A stretch of DNA of 64,000 nt from a virus (Duplodnaviria; Heunggongvirae; Uroviricota; Caudoviricetes): positions 977 through 64,976 of the IMG/VR virus record IMGVR_UViG_2974564184_000001. One strand, written 5' to 3'. Made by a program: the position numbers and the translations under genes. Each line of letters opens with the position of its first letter. Within the stretch, counting starts at the first letter, position 1. The notes below the pieces were generated by a model. It searched no databases and was not told the DNA's origin. It saw nothing but the letters and a program-made list of their open reading frames with translations. Shown one piece after another: positions 12,889-56,768 of the stretch.

Positions 12889-13203
12889 TTATGCGTCCAA
12901 ATCCAGTTCTTTTGCTGAGAACAGTTCATTACCCTCATAGGTAATGCCATCGACCACTGCAATGATCCGTGCAGGGATAGGGTCACCAGTCGGGCGACCA
13001 GCGTTATCGGTTTTGTACACGCGGGAGAAAGGTGCCTTTACCAGATAGGTCTCTTCCCGGGTGAAGTTGCGGGTCTGAATGGAACCACTTGACAGCTCCA
13101 CAGGGGTAAGTGCCGGAAGGAGTTTCACAATCTCAACTTCCGCACCAATCACCCCTTCGATTCCGAGATGCTCTGCCACCAAATCGCGTTTTACCTTAGG
13201 CAT
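12889..13203 (-). CDS. hypothetical protein
   Basis: 104-aa ORF. Confidence 0.4.
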   Translation of the reverse strand: MPKVKRDLVAEHLGIEGVIGAEVEIVKLLPALTPVELSSGSIQTRNFTREETYLVKAPFSRVYKTDNAGRPTGDPIPARIIAVVDGITYEGNELFSAKELDLDA

Positions 13204-13711
13204 TATTTTTCCCCTTCATTTCAAGCACGAATGCTTTGTGTTTATTGCTCTGCGGTACGCCAGTAAAGTTCACCGCGATGAAATAGTCAAGGATTTCTTC
13301 CTTGGTCGCATCTTCCAATGTTAATAATGGGAGATAGGGTCTTCCGAACGCTAACTGTTCAGACCGGGTAAGTTTTCCCCACCAGAGAGGCATTCCTTTC
13401 AGGATTATCGGGATCTCTCCGAGTATGAACTTCTGCAAAGTCATCAGACGTTGCTTACCGTCCACAACCTCAAGCCACGGCGTGTCTCTTGAGAGCCAAT
13501 TGCTGTGCTTGGCGATGGCTATTGTACCAAGAGGGAATCCAGAAATGCAAGTGTTTAAAAACTCTTGCTGCTGTTTCTTTTTCCACACGTAGTCCCTTTG
13601 GTAGGGAGCATTGTAATCGAATGCCCCACGCTCAATCCACCCAACGTAGGATTCAATCGTATGAGACCCGGGATTAACCCTGAATCTCTCGTGCTCTGTG
13701 ATCCTGTTCAC
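13196..13711 (-). CDS. DUF262 (ParB/Srx-like, GmrSD N-terminal-type) domain protein
   Basis: YQRDYVW and VVDGKQRLMTL (DGQQR-like) motifs; GTG start at 13711 with AGG RBS inferred because the long ORF overlaps upstream gene. Confidence 0.5.
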   Translation of the reverse strand: MNRITEHERFRVNPGSHTIESYVGWIERGAFDYNAPYQRDYVWKKKQQQEFLNTCISGFPLGTIAIAKHSNWLSRDTPWLEVVDGKQRLMTLQKFILGEIPIILKGMPLWWGKLTRSEQLAFGRPYLPLLTLEDATKEEILDYFIAVNFTGVPQSNKHKAFVLEMKGKNNA

Positions 13712-34846: not shown

Positions 34847-35329
34847 TTAAGCTCCTACTTCCGTGACACGAAGCTCTGTCCAAGGACGAACAGCAATGTG
34901 GGTGCTGTCTTCCAGGAAGATCTTTGTCTCGTCATGATAGTTCTCAACGCTTTTGACTAAATACATTTTACCGCAATAGTCAAAAGTGTCACCCGATTGA
35001 ACATTCTCAGCCTTGAATACACCCGGCACACGGTCTTCGTTCTCAACAAGCTCATAGCTGTCGGCGAAGATGTCCGGTTTGCATGGATAGAACTCACCAG
35101 CGAGACCTTTGATGATCATGTCCCCAGCAGTTGCAGTCATCAGACCTTCCAGTGTTGGAATTTCCAATGTGCGACCGCAGTCGCGAGTTTCAATCTCCGC
35201 AGAACGGAAGGTTCCGGTTTCGATCCAATTTTTGATCTGCCCGACAGAAGTGCTCGACCCTGTAAAGCGATGAGCCTCGATTTCAACGGGCTTCTTACGG
35301 TATTTTGCCATTAGTTTAGCGGCTCCCAT
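34847..35329 (-). CDS. hypothetical protein
   Basis: 160-aa ORF. Confidence 0.45.
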   Translation of the reverse strand: MGAAKLMAKYRKKPVEIEAHRFTGSSTSVGQIKNWIETGTFRSAEIETRDCGRTLEIPTLEGLMTATAGDMIIKGLAGEFYPCKPDIFADSYELVENEDRVPGVFKAENVQSGDTFDYCGKMYLVKSVENYHDETKIFLEDSTHIAVRPWTELRVTEVGA

Positions 35330-36612
35330 GTTTCTGGATTAACTTCGCGTTCATACTGTCCCACCGGGAACTGAGGAACACCCTTGTCGGTACGCGCCTG
35401 GAAGCTAAAGGTGATGAACTTACCAATAAGTTTCAGCATCTTCGCTTGAGTTCGTTCAGCATGTGTACCTTTGATCTTGCAACTGAACTCAGTACCGTCT
35501 TTTTCGATACAGTCCAGAACGCCTTCTCCGTTCTTGTCTTCTTTTGAGCCTGTGACTTTCGCCTCGGCTGTCTGGAAGATCTTCCATTTCTGGAGATCGG
35601 AAGATCGCTGACCATATTCATACAAACCTTTGAAGTTGCGAATCATCGTTCCTTCAAAGCCAGCCTGCATGTTTACTCCCACTGACCACTCGACCTGCTC
35701 AATGGTATCGTAGAAGCACCCCATCACAACAGCAATTTTACTGTACTGCTGCTCCGCCACTGTGGAATAAGTGGTGAACAGGTCAGCAAGGCGGCACTGC
35801 TCTGGGAATTCAACTGAGTGCCACGGGCTGTTGTTGTTTACCGGGATATCGAAAATGTGGAACTGCAAGTCCGCACTCTCATAACCGCCGTAGCGATTAA
35901 CATCCAGTTCCGGGACAACATCAACGTCGATCATGTCACCGTCGAAGTTTTTGTATTTCTCCATACCTATCGAGATAGCTTTATCACGACGCTTCACATC
36001 ACCTTCGTAATCCTTCTGGATTTCTGCGGCAATTGTTGCATGGGTACGCCACTTCTTGGTCAGCGCCACAATCTTTTGCAGGCTCAACCCGTGAATGTAC
36101 AACTCGCCGTCGAATTTGTCAAACCCTGAATGATTGCTCAGGGAGACAACTTCATCCACCAGCTTACCCTGCACAGGATAGGTTTTGTTGCCTCGACTGT
36201 TGAAAGAAGGAACCCCGTCTTTTACCAGCACCAATGCACGAACACCATCCAGCTTTGGCTGTGTATAGCAGGGGACTTCAATGGCACTACCACGTTTCAG
36301 GTAGTCATGAGCAAGCATTGGGGTGAAGACCTCTTCGGCCTCCAACTGATCAGTGCTCTCACGATAACCTAAACGAACCTGCTTCTCCCACTTGGATTTT
36401 GCTTCCAGCAGCGCCTGGAAATCAGCGGAAGTTTCATTGGCACGACCAACGTTTTTCATTTCGCAGGTGGTGCGTTTCTGTTGCAGCTTGCCGCCCACCT
36501 TTCCGAACTCAACGATGACATCTGCACCTTCGGTGTAGACTTTCCATTGTTGGAAAGAGCCATCTTTGTTCAGTGCATACAGCGTAGGGGTGCTGTCAAT
36601 ATTAATCGACAT
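35311..36612 (-). CDS. ATP-dependent DNA ligase
   Basis: motif I TQPKLDGVRAL (KxDG), 433 aa. Confidence 0.75.
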   Translation of the reverse strand: MSINIDSTPTLYALNKDGSFQQWKVYTEGADVIVEFGKVGGKLQQKRTTCEMKNVGRANETSADFQALLEAKSKWEKQVRLGYRESTDQLEAEEVFTPMLAHDYLKRGSAIEVPCYTQPKLDGVRALVLVKDGVPSFNSRGNKTYPVQGKLVDEVVSLSNHSGFDKFDGELYIHGLSLQKIVALTKKWRTHATIAAEIQKDYEGDVKRRDKAISIGMEKYKNFDGDMIDVDVVPELDVNRYGGYESADLQFHIFDIPVNNNSPWHSVEFPEQCRLADLFTTYSTVAEQQYSKIAVVMGCFYDTIEQVEWSVGVNMQAGFEGTMIRNFKGLYEYGQRSSDLQKWKIFQTAEAKVTGSKEDKNGEGVLDCIEKDGTEFSCKIKGTHAERTQAKMLKLIGKFITFSFQARTDKGVPQFPVGQYEREVNPETWEPLN

Positions 36613-36820
36613 CAGTTTCTCCTGATTTTAGTCCGTCCAGGGCGATGGTCGTTTCACAACTATCACCGTATTCTTTGTGGAGACGGAGATAGTCCTCCGG
36701 CCCCGACCAGTCATTGTCCTTGGTTTTCCAACCATCTGCGAAAGCATCTTCAACGATGGTGATCAACTCCAGACGGGAGATGGTTATTTGGTCAGACAGG
36801 CTTACTTGCTTTGCAGACAT
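36602..36820 (-). CDS. hypothetical small protein
   Basis: 72-aa ORF. Confidence 0.35.
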   Translation of the reverse strand: MSAKQVSLSDQITISRLELITIVEDAFADGWKTKDNDWSGPEDYLRLHKEYGDSCETTIALDGLKSGETDVD

Positions 36821-37701
36821 GTTTTGCCCTCCAAGTGATCTTCAACCATCTTGATCAATTCAGGGTCACTGAACGCATCAACCGCGCCTTTATCCCAGTG
36901 TAAGATTCCAGCCTTGTCGAGGTTCTGCATGTCGCTTTTCGAGTAGACCGCACTGTTCCAATCGGTAGACATAGCTGCCTTCTGTGCCGCTTCTGCATTG
37001 TAGAGGTTAATTTCCACAACCTTCGCCCCCAGTTTCAGCTTGGGCTTCAACATATAGCGGAAGTCAATAACCTGCATCGAGCAACCAACGACCAGAATCA
37101 GATCCTGAGAGTTAATCGTGTAGCCAAGCTCGTACATATCATTGTACAGAGGCGCACTCTCTGAGAAGAATACCACATTTGGTTTCGCCCAGTGATAATC
37201 TTTCGGGTCAAAGTCTTCACCCGGAGCCAGTTCCAACATTTCTTCGTGGCCCATCGGCTTCTTGATCACACGCATCTCATTAAGGTAGCCGTGAACATGA
37301 ATGATATCATCCCGAGGAACACCTGCACGTTCCAGTAAGTCGTCAACGTTGGTTGTCAGATTGATAACTTGACCCGGGAAGCGATTGTACCACTCCGCCA
37401 CACGCAGGTGCGCCAGATTCGGGCCTACCGTAGGCAGTTCTTTACGACGCTTCTCGTAAAATTTATGCGTCAGATAGTACAGGTTCTCGCCAAAGGTGTT
37501 TGGCTGTTCCGAAACAGCGTTCGGAGGTGGATTTTCACTGTTACGGTGATGGAAACCCGCCTGGAAACCCGGGGCGTAGCACACATCGTCCAATGCGTAC
37601 TCATCCCAGAGCGCTTTTCCGCTATCCGTATCGGTACGGAAGGTACGGACTCCGCTCTCAGCGGAGAATCCAGCACCAGACACTACGATAAGGCGGCGCA
37701 T
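36802..37701 (-). CDS. Sir2-family (sirtuin-like) NAD-dependent protein
   Basis: VVSGAGFSAESGVRTFR (GAGISxxSGIPxFR), TTNVDDLLERAG (TQNIDxL), HVHG (HLHG). Confidence 0.8.
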   Translation of the reverse strand: MRRLIVVSGAGFSAESGVRTFRTDTDSGKALWDEYALDDVCYAPGFQAGFHHRNSENPPPNAVSEQPNTFGENLYYLTHKFYEKRRKELPTVGPNLAHLRVAEWYNRFPGQVINLTTNVDDLLERAGVPRDDIIHVHGYLNEMRVIKKPMGHEEMLELAPGEDFDPKDYHWAKPNVVFFSESAPLYNDMYELGYTINSQDLILVVGCSMQVIDFRYMLKPKLKLGAKVVEINLYNAEAAQKAAMSTDWNSAVYSKSDMQNLDKAGILHWDKGAVDAFSDPELIKMVEDHLEGKTCLQSK

Positions 37702-37925
37702 TATGCCACCTTGCTCGCAGTTTTACGACCACGGAACGCTTTCGCGTGACCCATGCGGCTTTCGAAAGGACGGATATCCATCAGATTGCTCTGTGAGTGG
37801 ACACCTTTCAGGAATTGACGGGTTTCACCAAGCAGTTTGGCTGTTGCAACTGACTCGCTCAGTTCGCCACGCTCAAATGCTTCGATGGTTGCCTTCATTG
37901 AGGCCATGTTCATACGCTTTTTCAT
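37701..37925 (-). CDS. hypothetical small protein
   Basis: 74-aa ORF. Confidence 0.35.
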   Translation of the reverse strand: MKKRMNMASMKATIEAFERGELSESVATAKLLGETRQFLKGVHSQSNLMDIRPFESRMGHAKAFRGRKTASKVA

Positions 37926-38140
37926 TGTGTCTCCTTCTTCAAAAGTGAGTTTGGGTCATTGTGACCTGATCCTAAGGCAAATGCAATCACTGCGGTAAGC
38001 ATTGTTGCACGTCTTGCTGGATTTTGCAACGTGACAATCACCTCTGGGAGACAATTGACATCGTACAGCAGGGACATTAACGGGGGGTTATCCCGGATAA
38101 ATGCCTTTCCAAGGTCACTCAGTCCACTATCGAACGCCAT
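37922..38140 (-). CDS. hypothetical small protein
   Basis: 72-aa ORF. Confidence 0.35.
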   Translation of the reverse strand: MAFDSGLSDLGKAFIRDNPPLMSLLYDVNCLPEVIVTLQNPARRATMLTAVIAFALGSGHNDPNSLLKKETQ

Positions 38141-38612
38141 AATTGGTCTCCTTTAGTAGTTTTCTGAGTCTGTCGAACTCCTCAATCATCCAGTCGTACT
38201 GTGGCAACTCGATAACCTTGGCATTGTCGGCAGAACCATAGTAGTAATAGTGAGCAAAAGGTAGTTCAGACTTCGCGAGAGCAATTAAGATCTGCTTGTT
38301 CTGTCTTAGTTTGCACCTTATCGCCTCCAGAATGACAGATTTCTGTTCCTCCGTCAAGCCTTCTTTGTCGATTCGGTCATCACGCTTTACCTTTCCCATC
38401 TTTTTGGCACCAAACCCCTTCGCTGTTAGGAACTCGGGGTGCTGACTTCCGGTCAGGAAGTAATACCAGAACCCCTCAAGGCTCTGAAAACTACCATAAC
38501 CGGGGACTGTGAATTCACAATCATGAAGATTTGTCAGCATTCTCCCAAGGGGTGTGGCACCTTTCGTGTAGATGTTGATATGATCAACACCATCATTGAC
38601 AGGTGACCACAT
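38127..38612 (-). CDS. NADAR (YbiA/DUF1768)-like domain protein
   Basis: hand alignment to E. coli YbiA: INIYTK~INFYS, G..TNL~G.FSNF, SLEGFWYYF~SEHYFQA, PFAHYYYYGS~HTENDAYWG. Confidence 0.5.
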   Translation of the reverse strand: MWSPVNDGVDHINIYTKGATPLGRMLTNLHDCEFTVPGYGSFQSLEGFWYYFLTGSQHPEFLTAKGFGAKKMGKVKRDDRIDKEGLTEEQKSVILEAIRCKLRQNKQILIALAKSELPFAHYYYYGSADNAKVIELPQYDWMIEEFDRLRKLLKETNYGVR

Positions 38613-38615
38613 AAC

Positions 38616-39026
38616 CTACCTCAGTTTCAGAGATTCACGGAGAGCAGACTCCTGACGGCGCATGGTTTTATCCGGTACGTCATGCAAAGAGCTGTTTCCA
38701 TGTCTATTCTCAACCACAATTGAGGTGACACGGTAGTCGAACTCCGCAGCCAGGTCAAGATAAACCTGCAAATCGCGTTGTTTGACGTTCGTATCAGAAA
38801 TGATCAATGGCCCTACACCTGCTTCCATTGACCGCTTCAACATGTTGTATACCCAGTTGTGAGCATGACGCAGCTTGCTTGCCTGCCAATCATACACCCC
38901 ATCCGCGTTGTACATGTACATGTCCGCTTCAATACGGTGACCTTTCAGGGCCACTTCCAGCTCTTCGGCAAGCGTTGACTTGCCGGAGCCTGAACATCCA
39001 CGGATGATGTATACCTTTTTAGCCAC
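38616..39026 (-). CDS. P-loop polynucleotide kinase-like protein (Pnkp kinase-domain-like)
   Basis: Walker A GCSGSGKST; 136 aa; adjacent to RNA ligase. Confidence 0.6.
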   Translation of the reverse strand: MAKKVYIIRGCSGSGKSTLAEELEVALKGHRIEADMYMYNADGVYDWQASKLRHAHNWVYNMLKRSMEAGVGPLIISDTNVKQRDLQVYLDLAAEFDYRVTSIVVENRHGNSSLHDVPDKTMRRQESALRESLKLR

Positions 39027-39939
39027 TTTGTCCTCCCTGTAGGAACTTTTCGATGTGTACGCGGCGATCCTGTTCTGCGATCACTGTCCACTCGTCTTTG
39101 GTGAAGTTACCACGAAGGTAATCCAGTAATGGGTAATACTCTTCGTCAATTGTTTTCTTGACGCGATCACCGTGCTCCCAGATTGCTTCGCACTTCTTAA
39201 CGCCACCACGCATGAAGAATTTCTTCGCCAGGTAATGTGGTGACTTGATTTTCAGCAGCAATTTCCCCGATTCTACATCGCGAACGATGAAGCCCTCATG
39301 GGTACACGTTTTAGCGGCCTGTACGGTGTCTGAGAAGAGACATTTGCGCCAAGCTGGGCGTTTCCATGTCGGAAGACACAAACCGTCCAGAGCGCTCTCT
39401 GAGAGCATTTGGCCCGTGTCCTTGACGCGAGCACCGATCAGGTACGCACCAGGTTCTTCATGAACGATGTGTGGGTCTGACGGATCAACGATTTCGAACA
39501 TCAAATCCAGCATGTTCCACGTCTTGCTATTAACAAGATTTGGTTTCTGATCGAAGTTAATGACCTTCTCCGCTAATCGGGCATAGTCAGAATCCAGCGT
39601 TCCGGTTGTAGATACCAACCATTTCCCGTTGTATACCGTTGCGCCAGCCATGAACCCGTTAACCTTCACCGTCTCGATCACGATGTTGTTAGGGTTGAGG
39701 TCGGTCTTATTCTCGCCACGATTAAAGATTTTGGTGAATGGGTGCAGCACCACATTATCGTCAGAATCAACCACAATGCCACGGCACTCCAGCAGACGTG
39801 GGTCACGCTTCCACATATTGTCCCAGAACACGCGACCGTGGTACTTAAAGACTCTAAGGCCATCAAACGGCCCATCAACATAGGTCTTTACGCGAACCAA
39901 ACCAGAAGCGATCAGGTCATCAACATTAAATTTGTTCAT
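39019..39939 (-). CDS. RNA ligase-like nucleotidyltransferase
   Basis: motif I KVNGFMAG (KxNG), size 306 aa, neighbouring kinase and phosphoesterase. Confidence 0.55.
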   Translation of the reverse strand: MNKFNVDDLIASGLVRVKTYVDGPFDGLRVFKYHGRVFWDNMWKRDPRLLECRGIVVDSDDNVVLHPFTKIFNRGENKTDLNPNNIVIETVKVNGFMAGATVYNGKWLVSTTGTLDSDYARLAEKVINFDQKPNLVNSKTWNMLDLMFEIVDPSDPHIVHEEPGAYLIGARVKDTGQMLSESALDGLCLPTWKRPAWRKCLFSDTVQAAKTCTHEGFIVRDVESGKLLLKIKSPHYLAKKFFMRGGVKKCEAIWEHGDRVKKTIDEEYYPLLDYLRGNFTKDEWTVIAEQDRRVHIEKFLQGGQSG

Positions 39940-40139
39940 CTTTGTCTCCGTAATGAGAGATTTTTAATAAGGCGCATGGCTTCTTTCTTCGCCAGCGCCA
40001 TTTCGAGGTGGTCATCATACTGGTAGGTATCTTCCATGTCAAGCATCCAATACGCCTCTTCCAGGAAATGAACCACATTGTCCACATCAGGCTTAGTGGT
40101 GATCCGTTTTCGCGACGGGTTTGGACATTGCGATGTCAT
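39936..40139 (-). CDS. hypothetical small protein
   Basis: 67-aa ORF. Confidence 0.35.
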   Translation of the reverse strand: MTSQCPNPSRKRITTKPDVDNVVHFLEEAYWMLDMEDTYQYDDHLEMALAKKEAMRLIKNLSLRRQR

Positions 40140-40665
40140 ACGCCTCCTTCAAGGTCAGGACACGCCCATGCACATCCCAACCCACATCCAGAATGCGTCC
40201 AGGTGCGGAGTACGAACCATGACTATGACCATGAAGCATAACAGAACCGTGGTGGCACTTGTTCCACACCGCGAAAGGATAATGCGACATGACGACTTTG
40301 TTGCCTTCGATTTCCGTTTCCACATAGTCCGTGACTTCATGCCCATACTCCAGGAAGATTTTCCGAGTCAGACGGTGGTCATGGTTGCCACGCAAGAGGA
40401 TGATATGCCCATAAACCTGATCCAGGAATCGACGCAAGGCGTCTTCTGCCTTCTTGCCGTAGGCGAGACTCACATCCCCCAAATGGTAAACCGTATCACC
40501 CTGCTTCACTGTGCTGTTCCAGATCTTAACGATCCCAGCATTCATTCGCAGAACGCTTGCAGGGTCTGTCTTAGGCCCGTACAGGTCATAACGGTATTTA
40601 TCACATGATTCAAATCCCAAAATATTCTTATGGGAATCATGCGTATCCGACGTAATGTGGATCAT
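40093..40665 (-). CDS. calcineurin-like metallophosphoesterase
   Basis: SDTHD, GDVS..., LLRGNHDH, HGHSH metallophosphatase motifs. Confidence 0.75.
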   Translation of the reverse strand: MIHITSDTHDSHKNILGFESCDKYRYDLYGPKTDPASVLRMNAGIVKIWNSTVKQGDTVYHLGDVSLAYGKKAEDALRRFLDQVYGHIILLRGNHDHRLTRKIFLEYGHEVTDYVETEIEGNKVVMSHYPFAVWNKCHHGSVMLHGHSHGSYSAPGRILDVGWDVHGRVLTLKEAYDIAMSKPVAKTDHH

Positions 40666-40674
40666 TTGTTCTCC

Positions 40675-41046
40675 TTATTTATTTGATTTTCTTACAAATC
40701 CCAGTGTTGCTCTTTCAATAGCACTCATTGGGACTGAGGTCATTCCGCGTCGTTTTGCATCCGGCAGTGTCATCTCCCAGATACCCAGCCAATACTGGAG
40801 GGTCTTTATCCGCTTTTTCTGCTCGTAGTCAGGGCAGCGGTATTCCAAAAGATCCACCAATTCAGCAAGACGATCCACCAATACCTTCTCCAACTCCTCA
40901 ATCGGAGTCATAATCACGAAAGCGGAGGTATCAAAACCGTCTGCTCTTACAGGCTTCTTGATGTCTTGCTTTTTTGCAACACGTACTGTTGCTGGTTTCT
41001 TTGCAGCGGGTTTTCTCTTCGCTGCTGGCTTCTTAGGTGTTGCCAC
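40675..41046 (-). CDS. Lys/Ala-rich basic protein (histone-like tail)
   Basis: N-terminus MATPKKPAAKRKPAAKKPA. Confidence 0.4.
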   Translation of the reverse strand: MATPKKPAAKRKPAAKKPATVRVAKKQDIKKPVRADGFDTSAFVIMTPIEELEKVLVDRLAELVDLLEYRCPDYEQKKRIKTLQYWLGIWEMTLPDAKRRGMTSVPMSAIERATLGFVRKSNK

Positions 41047-41320
41047 GACGTTCCTCCGCAGGGTATACGTACAGCTTGCAATCCCAAGCCTTTACGTTCT
41101 TGTTTTGCCAATTGACCATCTTGATGATGATCAAGTTTATGATGTGTCTCTCCCCGTGCAGGTACACGTTGACATTAACCCAACGCTTCCCACACTCAGA
41201 TATTGTGTCCACATACACTTTTTCTCCGTAGCGTTCTTCCGCTTCCAGGATCAGTTCCAACAATCGTGCATACGCATCCTTGTAAACTGACTTCTCGTCA
41301 GCCAAGAGCTTTACGTTCAT
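41033..41320 (-). CDS. hypothetical protein
   Basis: 95-aa ORF. Confidence 0.4.
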   Translation of the reverse strand: MNVKLLADEKSVYKDAYARLLELILEAEERYGEKVYVDTISECGKRWVNVNVYLHGERHIINLIIIKMVNWQNKNVKAWDCKLYVYPAEERRGNT

Positions 41321-41420
41321 GAATTCTCCTCCACAATAGGTGCAGGAGCCTCTGAGCGGCTCTCTGCTGCGTTTAATCAGTATTACCCACCCGAATGTAC
41401 TGCCACAGTCTCAGAATCGC

Positions 41421-41708
41421 TTAGGATTCGATTGAGAGCGTTACAGAGATTCCACTGAGATCCACCAGCTTGATGTTACTTTGCATATGATCGTCTGTCA
41501 ACCCGGCCAGGGTTGTTACAGACACATTCCTGCGCCTCATTCGTTGGCGTACAGCCGGGAGATAGTTACCGAAGACCTGCTCCTCAGAAACACCATCAGG
41601 TAAAACAACACAAACTTCCTGTTCTTTCATGCACTCGTGAAATACTTCACGAGCCATCATCAAACGACTAACCTCAACTGCACTCATTGGCTTCTTACGT
41701 TCTTTCAT
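41421..41708 (-). CDS. hypothetical protein (first gene of leftward operon)
   Basis: 95-aa ORF with GGAG RBS; promoter upstream. Confidence 0.45.
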   Translation of the reverse strand: MKERKKPMSAVEVSRLMMAREVFHECMKEQEVCVVLPDGVSEEQVFGNYLPAVRQRMRRRNVSVTTLAGLTDDHMQSNIKLVDLSGISVTLSIES

Positions 41709-41734
41709 TCCGGTCTCCTTGTTAAGATGCTGCT

Positions 41735-41763
41735 ATCATACACTGAGTGACTCAGGAGTCAAC
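41735..41763 (-). promoter_or_regulatory. sigma70-like promoter (TTGACT-N16-TATGAT, minus strand) with embedded palindrome CTGAGT-C-ACTCAG
   Basis: read on minus strand: TTGACTcctgagtcactcagtgTATGAT then AAGGAGACCGGA-ATG of gene 41421..41708. Confidence 0.5.
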
Positions 41764-41860
41764 AAAAAGAAACAACAAACCCCCTATAAGGTCTTTAAGA
41801 TCTTAAAGTCTTTTGTTTTTATGTTTTATAAGTTAGTTTAGATCATAAGTTAGTATTGTA

Positions 41861-41974
41861 TACCCGACCGGGAATAATTAGGTATACCCGATTGGGAATA
41901 ATTAGGAGTTGACAGGTGTTGGGATGAAGTGTAGGCTATGACCCTAAATATACCCGAGAGGGAATAAATAGGAG
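41861..41974. repeat. three 24-bp direct repeats TATACCCGA-NN-GGGAATAA-N-TAGG (two tandem, one 42 bp downstream) flanking a TTGACA box
   Basis: 41861-41884, 41885-41908, 41951-41974; third copy abuts the TAGGAGG RBS of gene 41980. Confidence 0.8.
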
Positions 41975-41979
41975 GGTGT

Positions 41980-42348
41980 GTGGAGATAAGGCTTGGGGAA
42001 TCCACAGTGCAGATCAGGAAAGGGGCATACCTTACTGTTCCAACTGAGTGGGTTTTCGATGAGAGACTCTCCCCGCAGGATTTGCAAAGACTGATGAAGC
42101 TGTGGTGGCGATATGATTACTTCAAAAGCCTTAACCCAAGTGCGGGTGAAGAAGTTTTCTTCCCGTCACAGAAATCGCTTTGCCAACTCTTCGGGTTGAG
42201 TGAAAAATCGCAACCTAAGGTTTCAGAATTCTTGAAAAGGATGGAAGACTTAGGGTACATTAAACGAATCAGGTCTGGGTTTGTCGATACATCGGGTAAC
42301 GCGAAGCCAAGACACTTCATAATTGTCAACAGAGGAGACAAAACATGA
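41980..42348 (+). CDS. winged-helix DNA-binding protein (candidate regulator/iteron-binding)
   Basis: GTG start 4 nt after TAGGAGG; SQKSLCQLFGLSEKSQPKVSEFLKRMEDLGYIKR resembles wHTH. Confidence 0.45.
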   Translation: MEIRLGESTVQIRKGAYLTVPTEWVFDERLSPQDLQRLMKLWWRYDYFKSLNPSAGEEVFFPSQKSLCQLFGLSEKSQPKVSEFLKRMEDLGYIKRIRSGFVDTSGNAKPRHFIIVNRGDKT

Positions 42349-43196
42349 ACAACGTAACACTTCAACTGAACAACTTACAGGTTCCTGTCAAACACTTCAC
42401 CTTCAACGGTGGTGAGGAACAGGTTGTTATCGACCAAGCAGCCTCCCCGAAAGGTCGTGTGGCCTACGTGGATATCACTGCAAAGCTGAAAAGCTCAATG
42501 GATGTTATGACCCTGGTTATGCTGACTGATGCCTGCCGTCACATCCACAACCTGGATGATTGTGCTCGTTTCACTCTGCATATGCCATACATCCCTTACG
42601 CTCGTCAAGACCGTGTGATGAACGCAGGTGAAGCTGCTGCGGTGAAAGCATTCGTGAACGTGATCGCGGGACTGAAATTCGACAAAATTGTTGTCGCTGA
42701 TCCGCATAGCGATGTTGCTACCAATCTGCTGGATAACATCGGTGCTCGCCTGGAGGTAATCTCTCAGGACACCTTGTTCTCTGAATATATGGGAAACACT
42801 GGTGAGATCAAACGCAACACTCGCATTTGCACCGTGGGGCGTGGTAATCCGGTAATCGTCGCCCCTGATGCAGGCGCTCGCAAGAAAGCCCAGAAGGTTG
42901 CTGACCGTTATGGTTTCCGAATTGTAGAGGCTGGAAAAGTTCGTGATGTCCGGGATGGTAAGATCACCGGAACTTCCGTTCATGATGATGTGACCGGACT
43001 TCCTTGTATCATTGTGGACGATATCTGCGACGGTGGTCGTACTTTCGTTCCGCTGGCGGCGGCTCTGAAAGAGAAAGGTGCAAGCCAGGTAATCCTGTAC
43101 GTTACTCACGGCATCTTCTCAAACGGTAAACAGTTTCTTCTCGACGCAGGTATTGAGCAGGTTCATGCCTATTATGACTGGAAGGAGAACTTCTGA
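42345..43196 (+). CDS. ribose-phosphate pyrophosphokinase homolog (PRPP synthetase-like; candidate ADPR-PP synthetase of NAD reconstitution pathway)
   Basis: PYARQDR, DPHS, IIVDDICDGGRT PRS-family motifs. Confidence 0.75.
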   Translation: MNNVTLQLNNLQVPVKHFTFNGGEEQVVIDQAASPKGRVAYVDITAKLKSSMDVMTLVMLTDACRHIHNLDDCARFTLHMPYIPYARQDRVMNAGEAAAVKAFVNVIAGLKFDKIVVADPHSDVATNLLDNIGARLEVISQDTLFSEYMGNTGEIKRNTRICTVGRGNPVIVAPDAGARKKAQKVADRYGFRIVEAGKVRDVRDGKITGTSVHDDVTGLPCIIVDDICDGGRTFVPLAAALKEKGASQVILYVTHGIFSNGKQFLLDAGIEQVHAYYDWKENF

Positions 43197-43369: not shown

Positions 43370-45088
43370 ATGATTAATATGAACCCGCTTTTCGCAACTG
43401 ATTTCTACAAGCCGTCACATGCTGACCAGTACAATCAGAACAGCGAAGTAATCTTCTCGAACTTCACACCTCGTTCAGACAAACTGTTCCCACACTTCTC
43501 AGATGATGACCATCGTGTGGTTGTTGTCGGCACACAAGGTGTAGCGATTAACTTCCTGGTTGAATACTGGAATGACCAATTCTTCAAAAAACCGAAAAAC
43601 GAAGTGATCGGCGAGTACGTTGAAGAACTGAACCTGTCTCTGGGTATTCCGGTTGACAAAATTCGCACTGAACACATCGAAGCGCTGCATGATCTCGGTT
43701 ATCTGCCGTTAGAACTGCGTTCACTGCCGGAAGGTTCATTGGCCCCGGTACAAGTTCCGGTGTACACCATCCACAACACTGACCCGCGCTTCTTCTGGCT
43801 GACCAACTATTTCGAGACCGCTCTGTCGGCTGAGACCTGGAAGGTTATGAACAACGCAACTATTGCACACCAGTATTTCAAACTGTGCAAAGGTTTCAGT
43901 GACGAAACGTGTGATACTGCTGATCACTTGATGTTCCAGTGCCACGATTTCAGCTTCCGTGGTCTGAGCGGCATTGCGGACGCATACAAAAACGGCTTCG
44001 GTCACTTAACTTCTTTCTACGGTACTGATACCATCCCGGCAATTCGTTACGCTCGTCGTTACTACGGAATGCAGGGACAGTTCGTTGCAGGTTCAATCCC
44101 GGCATCTGAGCACAGTGTTGCAACAACAAACATCGGCGCGATTATCAAAAATCTGCTGAAAGACCCGAACTTCAAAGGTGCAACGCTGGACGAACTGCGT
44201 TATGCGGCTGAACTCGTGTTCTTGGAAAAGTACAGCACTGAAATTTATCCGAACGGATTGTGTTCGTATGTTTCTGACAGCTACGACTACTGGGCGGTTA
44301 TCCTGGCAATGCTGCCAGAGCTGAAAGATGAGATCATGGCTCGTGAAGGTAAGCTGGTAATCCGTCCAGACTCCGGTGACCCGATTCGCATCATTGCAGG
44401 TTATCGTTGGGTTGAACTGAAACAGTTCTCTGGCATCAATGCTGAGATGGTTCTGTTGCCAGGCGGCAAGTTCGTATCTTCTCGCGATATGTACGATGCG
44501 ATTCCTTGCGACGATACCCCGGTTGCTTATCACTTTGCGAAGCTGACCGAGGCGAATTTCAAAGAAGAGCAATTCGTCCCGGATCACATCGTGCATGGCA
44601 CCATTGAGTGTCTGTGGGATACCTTCGGTGGTCACCTGAACTCGAAAGGTTACCGTGTTCTTGATTCGCACATCGGCCTGATTTATGGTGACTCAATCAC
44701 TGTTGAACGTGCCAAAGCGATTATGCAGCGCCTGAAAGAGAAAGGTTATGCGTCAAGCAACATTGTGTTCGGTATCGGTTCGTACACTTACAACTACAGC
44801 ACTCGCGACAGCTTGGGCTTTGCATGTAAAGCGACTGGTTCCATCATCGCCGGAGAAGAAATCCTGGTGACCAAAGAGCCAAAAACAGACATGAAGAAAA
44901 AGTCTGCAAATGGTTTCCTGAAAGTGATCACCGACAAAAACGGTGTGTACAAACTGGTGGACGGTCTGAGCCTGGTAGACATCCAGGACGAGGATAATGA
45001 ATTAAAAATCATTTTCCGAAACGGTAAGCTGTACCGTAATACGACCCTGACGGAAATCCGTGAGCGTCTCATCGGACAGAAATCGTAA
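43370..45088 (+). CDS. nicotinamide phosphoribosyltransferase homolog (NAMPT/NadV-like; candidate Namat)
   Basis: AAGGAG RBS before ATG 43370; LFATDFYKPSHA N-terminal NAPRTase-family motif; 572 aa. Confidence 0.8.
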   Translation: MINMNPLFATDFYKPSHADQYNQNSEVIFSNFTPRSDKLFPHFSDDDHRVVVVGTQGVAINFLVEYWNDQFFKKPKNEVIGEYVEELNLSLGIPVDKIRTEHIEALHDLGYLPLELRSLPEGSLAPVQVPVYTIHNTDPRFFWLTNYFETALSAETWKVMNNATIAHQYFKLCKGFSDETCDTADHLMFQCHDFSFRGLSGIADAYKNGFGHLTSFYGTDTIPAIRYARRYYGMQGQFVAGSIPASEHSVATTNIGAIIKNLLKDPNFKGATLDELRYAAELVFLEKYSTEIYPNGLCSYVSDSYDYWAVILAMLPELKDEIMAREGKLVIRPDSGDPIRIIAGYRWVELKQFSGINAEMVLLPGGKFVSSRDMYDAIPCDDTPVAYHFAKLTEANFKEEQFVPDHIVHGTIECLWDTFGGHLNSKGYRVLDSHIGLIYGDSITVERAKAIMQRLKEKGYASSNIVFGIGSYTYNYSTRDSLGFACKATGSIIAGEEILVTKEPKTDMKKKSANGFLKVITDKNGVYKLVDGLSLVDIQDEDNELKIIFRNGKLYRNTTLTEIRERLIGQKS

Positions 45089-46316: not shown

Positions 46317-46392
46317 CGTGCAGTAGCTCAGGCGGTAGAGCAGCATCTTCATACGGTGACGGTCGGTGGTTCGAGTCCACCTTGCACGACCA
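46317..46392 (+). tRNA. tRNA-Met/fMet (anticodon CAT)
   Basis: acceptor CGTGCAG/TTGCACG, D-arm GCTCAGGCGGTAGAGC, loop TTCATAC, T-arm GGTGGTTCGAGTCCACC, ACCA. Confidence 0.7.
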
Positions 46393-46422
46393 AGACGATT
46401 TGAAAAATAATTTAGAAATTGT

Positions 46423-46451
46423 TTGACAATGCCACACTGATAGCTTAGTAT
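46423..46451 (+). promoter_or_regulatory. consensus promoter TTGACA-N17-TAGTAT
   Basis: upstream of gene 46514. Confidence 0.6.
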
Positions 46452-46513
46452 GAGCATCGTTGAGACAGAGACCAGCAAGAATGCTGGAAAATTAATCCAA
46501 AGAGGAGAACAAC

Positions 46514-46855
46514 ATGACCAAGAAGAAAACCGCCCCTAAGAAAGTTTCTGCAATTGATGCAATCAAGCAGCCTTTCCAGTACGAGTCCAAAACGACTCAG
46601 ACACACTCTCCGGCGAAAGACGTTCGTTTGGGCGGTACAGTGAAAACTGTCTCTGTCCGTAAGAAGGCCCGTGATGAAGACGGTAATGTCGTATTCGTGT
46701 ACGAGTCGAAGTCTAACGTAGAAGGCGGTCAGGTTATCTCCGCATCACATCGTATCCGCACTGGCAAGACCAAGCGTGAGCGTAACGCCAAAGTGCGTGA
46801 AGTGGTTAAAGCCGCTCCGGTAGAAACCAAAGGTTCTGCCAAAAAGAAAAAGTAA
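46514..46855 (+). CDS. Lys-rich basic protein
   Basis: 113 aa, AAGAGGAG RBS, K/R-rich termini. Confidence 0.5.
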   Translation: MTKKKTAPKKVSAIDAIKQPFQYESKTTQTHSPAKDVRLGGTVKTVSVRKKARDEDGNVVFVYESKSNVEGGQVISASHRIRTGKTKRERNAKVREVVKAAPVETKGSAKKKK

Positions 46856-46864
46856 AACAATTTC

Positions 46865-46941
46865 GGGGTATTAGCTCAGTTGGTTAGAGTAGCCGACTCT
46901 TAATCGGTAGGTCGAAGGTTCGAGTCCTTCATGCCCCACCA
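46865..46941 (+). tRNA. tRNA-Lys (CTT)
   Basis: GGGGTAT...anticodon loop CTCTTAA...GGTTCGAGTCC...ATGCCCCACCA. Confidence 0.7.
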
Positions 46942-46943
46942 AA

Positions 46944-47160
46944 CAATGGGCTTTGGGAGTAGTGTTTAATTACGGGTGAGGAAACCCTGGCCCTCCAGCT
47001 TAGAGGGACACCACGTAGGGTTCGAATCCCTACCTCCGCCCACCAACCTTGAAATGAGAGAGATACGGGTTCGACTCCCGTTCTTGCTGGCCCGGCCTCC
47101 TGTAGTGGGACAGGGCGATAGCTTAAATGGAAGAAAGTGCTCTCATTTCAAACACTTAGA
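46944..47160 (+). ncRNA. tRNA-like degenerate region with two T-arm motifs and a 12-bp long-range inverted repeat
   Basis: GTAGGGTTCGAATCCCTAC...CCGCCCACCA and ACGGGTTCGACTCCCGT without clean cloverleaves; TTGAAATGAGAG (47049) pairs with CTCTCATTTCAA (47143). Confidence 0.35.
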
Positions 47161-47170
47161 GGAGAACAGA

Positions 47171-55019: not shown

Positions 55020-55110
55020 GGAGGAGCAAATCGAATGGCGACGAAAGCTGTCTTGAAAACAGTCGAGCGTGATGAGCGCCTTGGGAGTTCGACTCTCCCC
55101 TCCTCCGCCA
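55020..55110 (+). tRNA. tRNA-Ser (TGA)
   Basis: GGAGGAG...GCTGT-CTTGAAA-ACAGT, long variable arm, GGGAGTTCGACTCTCCC, CTCCTCC G CCA. Confidence 0.65.
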
Positions 55111-55126
55111 AACAACAGGGGGACTC

Positions 55127-55549
55127 ATGGAAAAACTCTGTTCTAAATGTGGTGAAACAAAGCTACTAACGGAATTTAACAAGAGTTCCAAACGTAAAGA
55201 TGGTGTCCAAGTATGGTGCAGACCTTGTACCAAGAGTGTGAATAATGAGAAGTACGCTACTGATCACACACACAGGTCAAGAATCAGGAAGAACAATGAG
55301 AAAGAAGTGCAGAAATGCAAAGACCTTCTCCTTGAGTTCAAATCTGTAGGCTGCACGTTGTGTCCTGAAAAGGAACCAGTCGCATTGGATCTTCATCATC
55401 TTGATGAAGAGACCAAAGATGCAAATGTCTCAGACCTTATGCGTCGAGGGACTAAGAAACTGATAGCAGAGATGAACAAGTGCGTTGTGTTGTGTGCCAA
55501 CTGTCACAGAAAGGTTCATGCTGGAATATTGGTGCTACCGGGTCGGTAG
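55127..55549 (+). CDS. HNH homing endonuclease
   Basis: LDLHHLDEETKDANVSDLMRR...LCANCHRKVH; lies inside tRNA cluster, 3' end overlaps next tRNA. Confidence 0.7.
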   Translation: MEKLCSKCGETKLLTEFNKSSKRKDGVQVWCRPCTKSVNNEKYATDHTHRSRIRKNNEKEVQKCKDLLLEFKSVGCTLCPEKEPVALDLHHLDEETKDANVSDLMRRGTKKLIAEMNKCVVLCANCHRKVHAGILVLPGR

Positions 55550-55615
55550 CCGAGCGGTCAGGCACCCGCCTTTTAAGCGGAAAGACGTAGGGTTCGAATC
55601 CCACCCGACCCACCA
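55540..55615 (+). tRNA. tRNA-Lys? (TTT) with Ser-like D-arm and weak T-stem
   Basis: GGGTCGG TA GCCGAGCGGTCAGGC A CCCGC-CTTTTAA-GCGGA ... GGGTTCGAATCCC ... CCGACCC A CCA. Confidence 0.4.
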
Positions 55616-55639
55616 ATTTGAAAATTAGTGAAAATAAGG

Positions 55640-55668
55640 CTTGCAGAAGATTGATTTCACTGATAAAG
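55640..55668 (+). promoter_or_regulatory. promoter TTGCAG-N17-TAAAGT (CTGATAAAGT family)
   Basis: upstream of tRNA-Asn. Confidence 0.45.
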
Positions 55669-55741
55669 TAATTACTCGATAGGGGAAAAGAGACGGCACT
55701 CTCCCTGTGACGCTGAAAGATGCAGGCCGACGAATACAAAT

Positions 55742-55827
55742 GACGAGGTGGTTCATCCGGTAGAACAGCGGACTGTTAATCCGCGAGCGAAAGCTCTATG
55801 TGGGTTCGAGTCCCACCCTCGTCGCCA
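55742..55827 (+). tRNA. tRNA-Asn (GTT) with 15-nt extra arm
   Basis: GACGAGG TG GTTC..GAAC A GCGGA-CTGTTAA-TCCGC GAGCGAAAGCTCTAT GTGGGTTCGAGTCCCAC CCTCGTC G CCA. Confidence 0.55.
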
Positions 55828-55832
55828 AATTT

Positions 55833-55907
55833 GGGAATGTGGCAGATTGGTAATGTACTCCACTGTCTATGGAGCCTATGCGAGTTCGATCCTCGTCATT
55901 CCCGCCA
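55833..55907 (+). tRNA. tRNA-Asp (GTC)
   Basis: GGGAATG...CTCCA-CTGTCTA-TGGAG...CGAGTTCGATCCTCG CATTCCC G CCA. Confidence 0.65.
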
Positions 55908-55971
55908 AAATTAGCAAGCCAGCGATACCAGTTTTAGAAATGCCTCTGGGACAATTAAAAGGCAAATATTT

Positions 55972-56048
55972 CGGAGTTTAGCTCAGTCTGGTAGAGCGCC
56001 TGGTTTGGGACCAGGAGGTCGTAGGTTCGAGTCCTGCAACTCCGACCA
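55972..56048 (+). tRNA. tRNA-Pro (TGG)
   Basis: CGGAGTT TA GCTCAGTCTGGTAGAGC G CCTGG-TTTGGGA-CCAGG...GTAGGTTCGAGTCCTGC AACTCCG A CCA. Confidence 0.75.
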
Positions 56049-56103
56049 ATAAGATTTATCGTGGGGCGATGGGTATTCAGTTAACCATGCGACGGTAAAT
56101 TCA

Positions 56104-56179
56104 TGGGGAATTAGCTCAGTTGGTAGAGCGTCTGCCTTGCACGTAGAAGGTCAAGAGTTCAAATCTCTTATTCTCCACC
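56104..56179 (+). tRNA. tRNA-Ala (TGC)
   Basis: GGGGAAT with G3:U70, loop CTTGCAC, AAGAGTTCAAATCTCTT, ATTCTCC A CCA. Confidence 0.75.
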
Positions 56180-56235
56180 ATAATGACGCCTGGGAAACTG
56201 ACATGTACGTGTCGTCTTCACTGGGCTTTTATTAT

Positions 56236-56311
56236 GCAGGTATAGTTCAACTGGACAGAGCATCAGCTTACGAAGCTGAGAATCGGGGTTCGAATCCCTG
56301 TATCTGCACCA
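56236..56311 (+). tRNA. tRNA-Arg (ACG)
   Basis: GCAGGTA...TCAGC-TTACGAA-GCTGA...CGGGGTTCGAATCCCTG TATCTGC A CCA. Confidence 0.7.
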
Positions 56312-56415
56312 AATGAAGGCTGGGATTTCTTCGTGACCTCAGCGTTAAAGAGTCCTCAAGCATCGCCTCGGCGGTGAGCTTCTCGGGTCGCACCCGGTTA
56401 ATGAGGCATTATTTA

Positions 56416-56500
56416 GGGCAAGTGGCGAAATTGGTAGACGCACCAGATTTAGGTTCTGGCGCAGAAATGTGTGAGAGTTCGAGTCTCTCCTTGCCCACCA
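56416..56500 (+). tRNA. tRNA-Leu (TAG), type II
   Basis: GGGCAAG TG GCGAAATTGGTAGACGC A CCAGA-TTTAGGT-TCTGG, variable arm, GAGAGTTCGAGTCTCTC CTTGCCC A CCA. Confidence 0.7.
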
Positions 56501-56508
56501 AACACCTC

Positions 56509-56584
56509 GGGGGTGTAACTCAGTTGGTAGAGTGCCTGTTTGAAGAACAGATGGTCACTGGTTCGAATCCAGTCGTCCCCACCA
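56509..56584 (+). tRNA. tRNA-Phe (GAA)
   Basis: GGGGGTG TA ACTCAGTTGGTAGAGT...loop TTGAAGA...ACTGGTTCGAATCCAGT CGTCCCC A CCA. Confidence 0.65.
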
Positions 56585-56686
56585 AACATTCTCTGTGATG
56601 CAGGTTCGACTCCTGTCAGGACGGCAAAGCCTTCGGGTGGCGAGGTCGTGTGCGTGATGTGGTTAACGGCAGAGAAGTCAAACAGT

Positions 56687-56768
56687 TGCGTGGTAGTGAA
56701 ACGGATATATAGATCATGTTGGCCTCATAAGCCGAAGATTGTGGGTTCGACTCCCACTCACGCATCCA
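56687..56768 (+). tRNA. tRNA-Met/Ile2? (CAT), 82 nt
   Basis: TGCGTGG...TTGGC-CTCATAA-GCCGA AGATT GTGGGTTCGACTCCCAC TCACGCA T CCA; D-arm could not be folded cleanly. Confidence 0.4.

Follow-up and report, generated by a model that had tools for sequence, protein, structure and literature searches.

A cassette of three genes, coding for a P-loop kinase, an RNA ligase and a binuclear metallophosphoesterase (MPE), has been found between positions 38616 and 40665 of the stretch of phage DNA described here (64,000 nucleotides, positions 977 to 64,976 of the IMG/VR record IMGVR_UViG_2974564184_000001; hereafter, the window). With a probability of about 0.58, this cassette is a three-enzyme heal-and-seal RNA repair unit, functionally equivalent to Pnkp plus Rnl1 of phage T4 and assembled from separate, partly non-homologous parts. 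Within this proposal, it is highly probable that the kinase and the ligase act together on broken RNA, and the odds are slightly better than even that the MPE is the 3'-end healing enzyme, a role suggested by its gene context. The RNAs mended would probably be tRNAs cut by host defence nucleases; we infer the enzymatic activities, the substrate and the nuclease that is countered. Over region 38000–41200, the window and Erwinia phage Hena1 (MN732867.1/NC_048828.1; Vequintavirinae, Henunavirus) agree in 100% of positions, window coordinates being those of the Hena1 record minus 976. The cassette comprises the following genes, including an intervening open reading frame (ORF):

38616–39026, minus strand: P-loop kinase, 136 amino acids, GTG start, GCSGSGKST motif; stand-alone, Pnk-like, predicted 5'-OH polynucleotide kinase
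39019–39939, minus strand: RNA ligase, 306 amino acids, VKVNGF motif; predicted to be ATP-dependent and of the Rnl1 (T4 RnlA-like) clade, with a short C-terminus
39936–40139, minus strand: ORF67, 67 amino acids, between the ligase and MPE genes; phrog_32298 (7.7e-8), hypothetical in GenBank
40093–40665, minus strand: binuclear MPE, 190 amino acids, aq_1665-like clade; candidate RNA 3'-end healing enzyme (2',3'-cyclic phosphate or 3'-phosphate)

A first, sequence-only reading of the window had called the kinase, ligase and MPE genes at these positions, and the ORF list confirms them, all on the minus strand. The same reading described the three genes as adjacent; they are indeed tightly clustered, but the conserved ORF67, a homologue of which was found by tblastn at the same site in the relatives L006, L011, L014 and L035, lies between the ligase and the MPE. 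The ligase stop and the kinase start overlap by 8 nt, the ORF67 stop and the ligase start by 4 nt, and ORF67 shares 47 nt with the 3' end of the MPE gene. The kinase, ligase and MPE genes lie inside a long leftward co-directional array that runs from approximately 41708 to 35311, and they are probably co-transcribed, because the array is tightly packed and stop and start codons overlap. A scan of 35000–42400 for promoters and terminators returned counts not above those of shuffled sequence and is uninformative on operon structure. In the Hena1 record the three genes are named 'putative NEDD4-binding protein 2 (Polynucleotide kinase)', 'RNA ligase' and 'putative Metallophosphatase'. The presence of the cassette in Hena1 is an expected Vequintavirinae feature, already annotated and already covered by the comparative-genomics literature.

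Family assignment of the three proteins

The kinase matches Pfam AAA_33 (1.6e-11), phrog_2071 (7.8e-39) and phrog_505, 'polynucleotide kinase' (4e-10). Its similarity to T4 Pnk is weak in a single-sequence search; when a profile of 31 homologues is run against the PDB, T4 Pnk comes first, over the full length (1.9e-9), followed by the Mucorales tRNA-splicing 5'-OH kinase (1e-8), PSTK, Pnkp1 and the kinase domain of Clostridium thermocellum Pnkp, and nicotinamide riboside kinase and metabolite kinases give far weaker, partial matches. The fold points the same way: in a Foldseek search with the AlphaFold2 model (predicted local distance difference test, pLDDT, 87; predicted template modelling score, pTM, 0.81), ranks 1–17 are all chains of T4 Pnk (template modelling score, TM, 0.74–0.78) or of C. 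thermocellum Pnk (0.73–0.76), while metabolite kinases reach a TM of at most 0.6. Among the 31 homologues, the P-loop (G10-x4-G15-K16-S17) and D35, which aligns with the catalytic D35 of T4 Pnk, are invariant. In addition, the near-invariant R108, within an ENRHG...H.VP motif, aligns at or near the lid arginine R122 of T4 (lid arginines R122/R126). The protein consists of the kinase domain only, without the fused C-terminal HAD (DxDxT) 3'-phosphatase. By profile and by modelled fold, then, it is placed in the Pnk clade, as the sequence-only reading had it when it named a polynucleotide 5'-kinase, and its activity is predicted.

The ligase scores 34.7 bits (2.2e-8) against Pfam RNA_lig_T4_1, whose gathering cutoff is 28.3, and matches phrog_562 at 7.8e-60. 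Its only significant relative in the PDB is T4 Rnl1, at 8.5e-5 with the single sequence and at 1e-19 with a profile of 26 homologues (26–80% identical to the Hena1 protein); the profile match spans the nucleotidyltransferase domain and ends at ligase residue 242 (T4 259). The family is thus of Rnl1 type by Pfam and by PDB profile, and not a relative of DNA ligases or capping enzymes, an alternative that was checked. Motif I, noted as KVNGF in the sequence-only reading, stands up to alignment: K92-V-N-G95 pairs with T4 K99-E-D-G102, the lysine K92 falling on K99 and being invariant among the 26 homologues (residues of chain 2c5u carry native T4 numbers plus 1). Neither of the two outcomes that the sequence-only reading had named as its refutation, a lacking motif I lysine or kinship with DNA ligases or capping enzymes, was thus seen. 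In fact, motifs III, IV and V and the Rnl1-specific upstream positions are all invariant in the family, as the list of invariant residues shows (R53/G54, K70/F72/N73, K92/G95, E149, E215/G216 and K230/K232). Their T4 equivalents include R54, K75, F77, K99, G102, E159, E227, G228, K240 and K242, ten residues of T4 Rnl1 that the mutational work of Wang, Ho and Shuman in 2003 reportedly found essential; nearly all of the essential positions of that enzyme are retained.

The MPE matches Pfam Metallophos at 4.5e-5, above the gathering score, and phrog_547 at 7.8e-48. The metal-ligand motifs of the superfamily (DxH, GD, GNH[DE], H and GHxH) are present as D7-x-H9, G63-D64, G93-N94-H95-D96, H128 and H147-x-H149, positions at which 32 homologues show either invariance or conservation of at least 90%; the AlphaFold2 model has a pLDDT of 95. 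The protein belongs to the clade of the uncharacterised Aquifex aeolicus aq_1665 (PDB 1xm7), a match that brings no information on substrate, and is far from the Pnkp and lambda phosphatases; the phage clade differs from aq_1665 by extra conserved C-terminal motifs (W134, LDVGWD and DHH). Only the superfamily is common to this protein and the single MPE known to heal RNA 2',3'-cyclic phosphate ends, and its substrate cannot be read from homology. Of what the sequence-only reading had proposed for this gene, a calcineurin-like phosphoesterase that could act as the 2',3'-phosphatase, the binuclear metal motifs are conserved, and the putative phosphatase role comes from gene context only, the family occurring also in phages that have neither ligase nor kinase nearby. 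Two annotations of relatives deserve mention. The gene L087:4420-4995 of Enterococcus phage EfV12-phi1, named 'phosphohydrolase (MutT/nudix family protein)', matches the MPE family by tblastn and stands beside an annotated 'phosphoesterase', and in Pseudomonas phage PA10 the Nudix note is again attached to the MPE (L003:3472-4026); the label looks like a propagated annotation error.

Linkage of the three genes across phages

The distribution of the genes was followed by tblastn in 50,697 phage records, of which 923 carry the ligase clade, 616 (1.2%) the kinase and 1372 (2.7%) the MPE. Gene neighbourhoods were examined in a set of 84 loci (80 IMG/VR loci with ligase homologues and four annotated phages), in which the kinase and MPE genes were located by tblastn, and the loci were collapsed to 44 ligase clusters at 70% identity. 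Of the 44 clusters, 39 have a kinase within 8 kb of the ligase, 40 have an MPE and 35 have both. The kinase adjoins the ligase or is fused to it in 28 clusters, and the MPE adjoins either the ligase or the kinase in 26, often with abutting or overlapping ORFs. The gene order is MPE-ligase-kinase in 15 clusters and kinase-ligase-MPE in another 15, with rarer ligase-MPE-kinase, ligase-kinase-MPE and inverted MPE-kinase-ligase arrangements; the order thus differs among clusters and, therefore, the linkage has outlived repeated rearrangement. This clustering is far beyond chance and argues strongly that the genes form an RNA repair unit for healing and sealing. The conserved core formed by kinase, ligase and MPE recurs in Pakpunavirus, Otagovirus, phi92-like phages, T5-like vibriophages and Acinetobacter phages.

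Co-distribution is also apparent from the host genera, where the numbers of kinase and ligase records nearly coincide: Pseudomonas (173 and 175, respectively), Vibrio (89 and 83), Acinetobacter (24 and 24), Campylobacter (23 and 23), Aeromonas (13 and 13) and Salmonella (14 and 15). The surplus of ligase over kinase corresponds to T4-like and Streptomyces phages, and the one Streptomyces example sampled has a T4-type Pnkp. In that phage, Stanimal, the same ligase clade is accompanied by a 296-amino-acid T4-type Pnkp (kinase plus HAD phosphatase) and no MPE is found nearby, a pairing that for this reason fits non-orthologous replacement of the 3'-phosphatase.

Another example of the link between kinase and ligase is provided by gene fusion. 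In two clusters (L041, and L063 with nine relatives) a single ORF of 421–432 amino acids joins an N-terminal AAA_33 kinase to a C-terminal RNA_lig_T4_1 domain, and judging from these domain matches the two genes of Hena1 are united there in a Rosetta-stone fusion. The fusion genes, all on contigs of uncultivated phages, are:

L041:7563-8828: kinase-ligase fusion ORF
L063:7530-8828: kinase-ligase fusion ORF
L065-L071 and L075: further kinase-ligase fusion ORFs

A 3'-phosphatase was looked for beside them, and the 229–236-amino-acid ORFs that lie upstream have no Pfam or PHROG match. In the L041 contig, an Rnl2-type ligase (PF09414) is encoded 1.7 kb downstream of the fusion gene.

With the linkage in 44 ligase clusters and the kinase-ligase fusions, the proposal of the sequence-only reading that the trio is a functionally linked set for RNA end healing and sealing is supported. 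A pattern-limited scan of 185,579 bacterial and archaeal species, one genome per species, found the ligase clade at 5 loci only, four of them on metagenome-assembled contigs (MPE present in 4, kinase in 3), and no cellular counterpart operon; within the limits of such a scan, phages are essentially the only carriers of the ligase clade. About 600 sequenced phages have the kinase-ligase-MPE kit, among them candidates for therapy against Pseudomonas, Klebsiella, E. coli and Acinetobacter, so that the T4 arrangement is no more common than this one. Were the proposed repair function true, a function would be assigned to the aq_1665 phosphoesterase clade, differences in host range on strains with anticodon nucleases would be explained, and compact new RNA end-modifying enzymes would become available for molecular biology.

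Predicted mechanism, known systems and rival explanations

Defences that cleave tRNA (PrrC, RloC, PARIS, some retrons, Cas13 and VapC-like toxins) are a major theme of the conflict between phages and their hosts. To our knowledge, T4 Pnkp plus Rnl1 is the only phage repair answer to tRNA cleavage that has been established experimentally. In the mechanism proposed for Hena1, the 136-amino-acid Pnk-like kinase would phosphorylate the RNA 5'-OH, the aq_1665-like MPE would open and remove the 2',3'-cyclic or 3'-phosphate and leave a 3'-OH, and the Rnl1-type ligase, adenylylated at K92, would then seal the 3'-OH and 5'-PO4 ends. The RlaP nucleotidyltransferase, which would re-add lost 3' nucleotides, the CCA enzyme with its HD domain and the 25 tRNAs encoded elsewhere in the window may represent further layers of the same anti-ribotoxin strategy.

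The predicted chemistry (5'-OH phosphorylation, 3'-end dephosphorylation and ATP-dependent sealing of Rnl1 type) is the same as that of T4 Pnkp plus Rnl1, which counters PrrC. The kinase and the nucleotidyltransferase domain of the ligase are homologous to the T4 enzymes, and both phages have an Rnl2 and a homologue of RlaP (NrdC.11 in T4). On the other hand, the putative phosphatase of Hena1 is a binuclear MPE unrelated to the DxDxT domain of T4, the Hena1 kinase carries no HAD domain and the ligase is 68 amino acids shorter, without a detectable T4-type C-terminal tRNA-specificity domain. The three Hena1 genes are clustered, whereas pseT and rnlA of T4 are presumably not adjacent. Bacterial Pnkp/Hen1, as in C. 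thermocellum, likewise has the three activities predicted for Hena1, with a kinase of similar fold (TM about 0.75) and a phosphatase of the same MPE superfamily; it differs in being one polypeptide with an Rnl4-type ligase, a lambda-phosphatase-like module and a Hen1 methyltransferase partner. A Hen1 homologue is not evident in the annotation or among the scanned ORFs of the cassette array, no search aimed at Hen1 having been made. By family, the trio (an Rnl1-type ligase and an MPE of the aq_1665 clade, on separate polypeptides) stands outside bacterial Pnkp and, as judged from sequence comparison, is not Pnkp-like by descent, which makes the 'Pnkp-like' name given by the sequence-only reading imprecise. 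That reading is partly supported: it was right in substance, in seeing a cassette for healing and sealing RNA as one of several layers of tRNA protection, and imprecise in the family assignment, while tRNA specificity and the defence targets it named (PrrC, RloC, PARIS and retrons) are points that we infer rather than observe.

Fungal Trl1 and the split enzymes of Mucorales likewise combine an Rnl1-clade ligase, a P-loop kinase and an enzyme that opens the cyclic phosphate, and the Mucorales tRNA-splicing kinase is also a small stand-alone protein (PMC11571804). Trl1 differs in its 2H cyclic phosphodiesterase, its requirement for a 2'-PO4 and its reliance on Tpt1, and also in its domain order (ligase, kinase and cyclic phosphodiesterase, versus kinase-ligase in the phage fusions). 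The closest precedent is the rV5-like neighbourhood, described as a predicted RNA-repair system by Iyer, Burroughs, Anantharaman and Aravind (2022; Viruses 14:1977, PMC9503650). These authors proposed an NAD+-utilising RNA repair in which the sirtuin acts like KptA/Tpt1, and considered that the phosphoesterases may alternatively process ADPr>P (PMC9503650); their jumbo-phage survey likewise reports ATP-grasp RNA ligases together with polynucleotide kinases and with phosphatases of the HAD, calcineurin-like or HD type. Hena1 has the full set of sirtuin, T4-like tRNA ligase, nucleotide kinase and calcineurin-like phosphoesterase in 3.9 kb of one strand. It differs from the rV5 neighbourhood in that cREC was not identified in the array (small ORFs without Pfam match, scanned without a cREC model) and in that its single MazG-like gene is about 93 kb away. 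The Hena1 type of cassette was predicted before by Iyer et al. (2022), and the kinase-ligase-MPE kit is already known computationally.

Several observations weigh against the repair unit as proposed. In both homologues of T4 enzymes, a residue important in the comparison is not conserved: the equivalent of T4 Pnk R38, which contacts the acceptor nucleotide, is Met in the Hena1 kinase and variable across the family, and K119 of T4 Rnl1 aligns with a conserved Thr (T112) in the ligase. Only about 65 ligase residues follow motif V and they show no alignment to the T4 Rnl1 C-terminal domain in the profile search, a counterpart of the tRNA-specificity domain (T4 residues approximately 255–374) being undetectable by profile alignment, which looks at sequence only; the C-terminus being unlike that domain, tRNA specificity is unsupported on this count. 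Moreover, the ligase reaches 30 bits against a cutoff of 242 bits in the NCBIfam T4 RnlA equivalog model (TIGR02308), and on these alignments it is placed in a distinct 'short Rnl1-like' clade inside the Pfam family and not as an orthologue of T4 RnlA. Records with the MPE family outnumber those with the kinase by about two to one, and the family occurs without ligase or kinase within approximately 5–6 kb in phages of Staphylococcus, Enterococcus, Vibrio and Streptomyces, as in the following examples:

Staphylococcus phage Stab23: MPE-only flanks, Prs/Nampt pair 2 kb away
Enterococcus phage EfV12-phi1: MPE-only flanks, two MPE paralogues
Vibrio phage D138: MPE-only flanks
Streptomyces phage Stigma: MPE-only flanks

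Conversely, the phages with kinase-ligase fusions have no MPE in the flanks examined. Finally, a search of the literature found no biochemical or genetic data on any member of the kinase, ligase and MPE clades.

A fusion of the MPE to kinase or ligase was looked for as well, and the longer homologues (P0338, P0292, P0275 and P0318) contain neither domain. The MPE-only phages, the fusion phages that lack an MPE and the lack of MPE fusions together keep alive the explanation in which the repair unit is composed of kinase and ligase alone. The MPE would then hydrolyse small phosphodiester or phosphomonoester metabolites, such as NAD+ and ADP-ribose derivatives or the cyclic (oligo)nucleotides of immune signalling, in a counter-defence island with the NARP1-like Prs/Nampt pair, and 3' healing would be provided by the HD domain of the CCA enzyme or by a host enzyme, or would be unneeded. 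The free-standing MPEs of Herelleviridae, of some vibriophages and of Streptomyces phages agree with such a role, as do the MPE of Stab23 beside Prs and Nampt, the Prs/Nampt homologues that turn up alongside the cassette in about half of the 84 loci, and the ADPr>P processing allowed by Iyer et al. (2022; PMC9503650). It is nevertheless unlikely, because the direct contact of MPE with ligase or kinase in 26 of the 44 clusters is kept through both of the predominant gene orders, the phosphatase shown experimentally to be associated with NARP1 is a Macro-domain protein and not an MPE, and the phage that combines the ligase with a HAD-bearing T4-type Pnkp has no MPE nearby. A T4-type HAD Pnkp is annotated nowhere in the Hena1 genome and, for that reason, the MPE is the best-placed candidate for 3'-end healing there. 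A related and more far-reaching idea, which we put forward tentatively and at odds clearly below even, is that the aq_1665-like MPE represents a new class of RNA 3'-end healing enzyme (2',3'-cyclic phosphodiesterase/3'-phosphatase) that, with a minimal Pnk and a short Rnl1-type ligase, would make up perhaps the most widespread phage RNA-repair kit, coupled maybe in rV5-like phages to a Sir2 that removes RNA 2'-phosphates with NAD+.

The NAD+-dependent, yeast-like route of Iyer et al. (2022) keeps all three enzymes in RNA repair with a different chemistry: the phosphoesterase would yield a 2'-PO4/3'-OH end, kinase and Rnl1-type ligase would seal, Sir2 would transfer the junction or terminal 2'-phosphate to NAD+ as Tpt1/KptA does, Macro-type enzymes would clear the ADP-ribose products and NARP1 would refill NAD+. 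The hypothesis is published (PMC9503650), and both Hena1 and rV5-like loci have Sir2 in the array of the cassette, at a distance of 0.9 kb from the kinase; a Macro-domain protein and NAD+ salvage genes are also encoded in Hena1. Fungal and plant Trl1 ligases, which require the 2'-PO4, are classed with T4 Rnl1, and this, too, speaks for the route. We regard it as improbable all the same. Sir2 accompanies the cassette in just about 12 of the 84 loci, all of them relatives of rV5, so that the sirtuin is a lineage-specific addition outside the conserved core; in the PDB search the ligase profile hits T4 Rnl1, without any Trl1 structure at E <= 1; and the cREC that was not identified in the array and the distant MazG-like gene, both described above, do not fit. 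We know of no sirtuin shown to have Tpt1-like activity. A role of the Hena1 Sir2 as an accessory Tpt1-like remover of 2'-phosphates, as proposed by Iyer et al. (2022), is possible.

The cassette could serve DNA instead of RNA if kinase and MPE processed DNA ends (5'-OH phosphorylation and 3' cleaning or nuclease action) in repair or replication for the nearby ATP-dependent DNA ligase. This ligase gene (35311–36612) is 2 kb away, and about 40 of the 84 loci have one in their flanks; besides, T4 Pnk acts on DNA too, and the MPE has a weak NCBIfam match to the 'ligase-associated DNA damage response endonuclease PdeM' (9e-4, far under the cutoff). Such a role is highly improbable, given that both the fusions and the co-distribution of the kinase involve the RNA ligase and not the DNA ligase, that the linkage with DNA ligase is much weaker and that the MPE is a minimal 190-amino-acid domain without the capping and DNA-binding domains of Mre11/SbcD. 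Hardly credible is, lastly, the view that the ligase is mainly a tail-fibre attachment factor, the second activity of T4 gp63, and that the clustering is functionally meaningless. Its sole source is the PHROG/RefSeq name 'RNA ligase and tail fiber protein attachment catalyst', inherited from T4 gp63, but the catalytic residues are all invariant, the gene is located among early or metabolic genes some 46 kb from the tail-fibre genes, and the linkage and fusion with a polynucleotide kinase would be left unexplained.

Other RNA-repair and NAD+ genes of Hena1

The surroundings of the cassette, and the remainder of the window, contain further genes related to RNA repair, tRNA supply or NAD+ metabolism:

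8616–9674, minus strand: RlaP-family nucleotidyltransferase (RNA-ligase-associated Pol-beta nucleotidyltransferase), Pfam RlaP PF10127 (2.2e-13), phrog_388 (3e-75)
9667–10056: DUF7205 protein, between the RlaP and CCA enzyme genes
10363–10863: phrog_3668 'hydrolase', between the RlaP and CCA enzyme genes
11614–12879, minus strand: class II CCA-adding/repair enzyme with HD domain, Pfam PolyA_pol (3.8e-20) and HD (6.9e-6)
35311–36612, leftward array of the cassette: ATP-dependent DNA ligase, 2 kb from the cassette
36802–37701, minus strand: Sir2-family protein, Pfam SIR2 (7e-19), phrog_2162 (3e-85), 0.9 kb downstream of the kinase
38127–38612, minus strand: widely conserved 161-amino-acid protein, directly downstream of the kinase
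42345–43196, plus strand: Prs-like gene, in a rightward unit across the divergent intergenic region from the cassette
43370–45088, plus strand: Nampt-like gene, in the same rightward unit, which also holds the tRNA island
46317–56768, plus strand: tRNA island, 25 tRNA genes (ARAGORN and GenBank), 19 amino acids, Val absent

Two claims of the sequence-only reading are verified here, namely the approximately 25 tRNAs, of which ARAGORN finds 25, and the full class II CCA enzyme with an HD domain. GenBank adds a 108-nt 'tRNA-sup(tca)' (record 50338-50445, window 49362-49469) that is not in the ARAGORN output. Against the NCBIfam model NF008137, 'multifunctional CCA addition/repair protein', the CCA enzyme scores 415 bits (2.1e-124), slightly below the equivalog cutoff of 451 bits. 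The RlaP gene, annotated merely as 'nucleotidyltransferase', is 2 kb from it, and the two form a second RNA-repair sub-cluster, on which the sequence-only reading is silent as regards RlaP. RlaP enzymes add one or two nucleoside monophosphates onto damaged RNA 3' ends, and have been proposed as antidotes to nucleotide-excising nucleases such as RloC (PMC12776372).

The 161-amino-acid protein has homologues in 451 phage records (among them jumbo phages, Ackermannviridae-like phages and Proteus phage Myduc), all of them 'hypothetical'. A resemblance to NADAR seen by eye was dropped, as it found no support in Pfam (E<=5), NCBIfam, a PDB phmmer search or PHROG names. In phage Bas63 the Prs/Nampt gene pair was shown to be NARP1 (Adps plus Namat), which rebuilds NAD+ from ADP-ribose and nicotinamide against NAD-depleting defences. 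NARP1 is extended by a 'phage phosphatase' (Osterman et al. 2026 preprint), and its identity with the MPE was considered and rejected, that phosphatase being a Macro-domain protein. Outside the window, in stretches 120680-123332 and 97875-100106 of the Hena1 record (L092), the phage encodes a 'phosphatase' with a Macro domain (Pfam Macro, 3e-4), as in the NARP1-associated ADPR-1''P phosphatase Adpp (NARP1-AP), an Rnl2-type ligase (Pfam RNA_ligase, 2.9e-9) abutting a methyltransferase, an HD phosphohydrolase, and PnuC with an NMN adenylyltransferase, a NARP2-like component. A MazG-like protein is annotated outside the window as well. Finally, a protein of 171 amino acids with a GmrSD_N (DUF262-type) domain (4.6e-19) is encoded within the window at 13196–13711 on the minus strand; this is the N-terminal domain of type IV restriction enzymes, unusual for the early region of a lytic phage.

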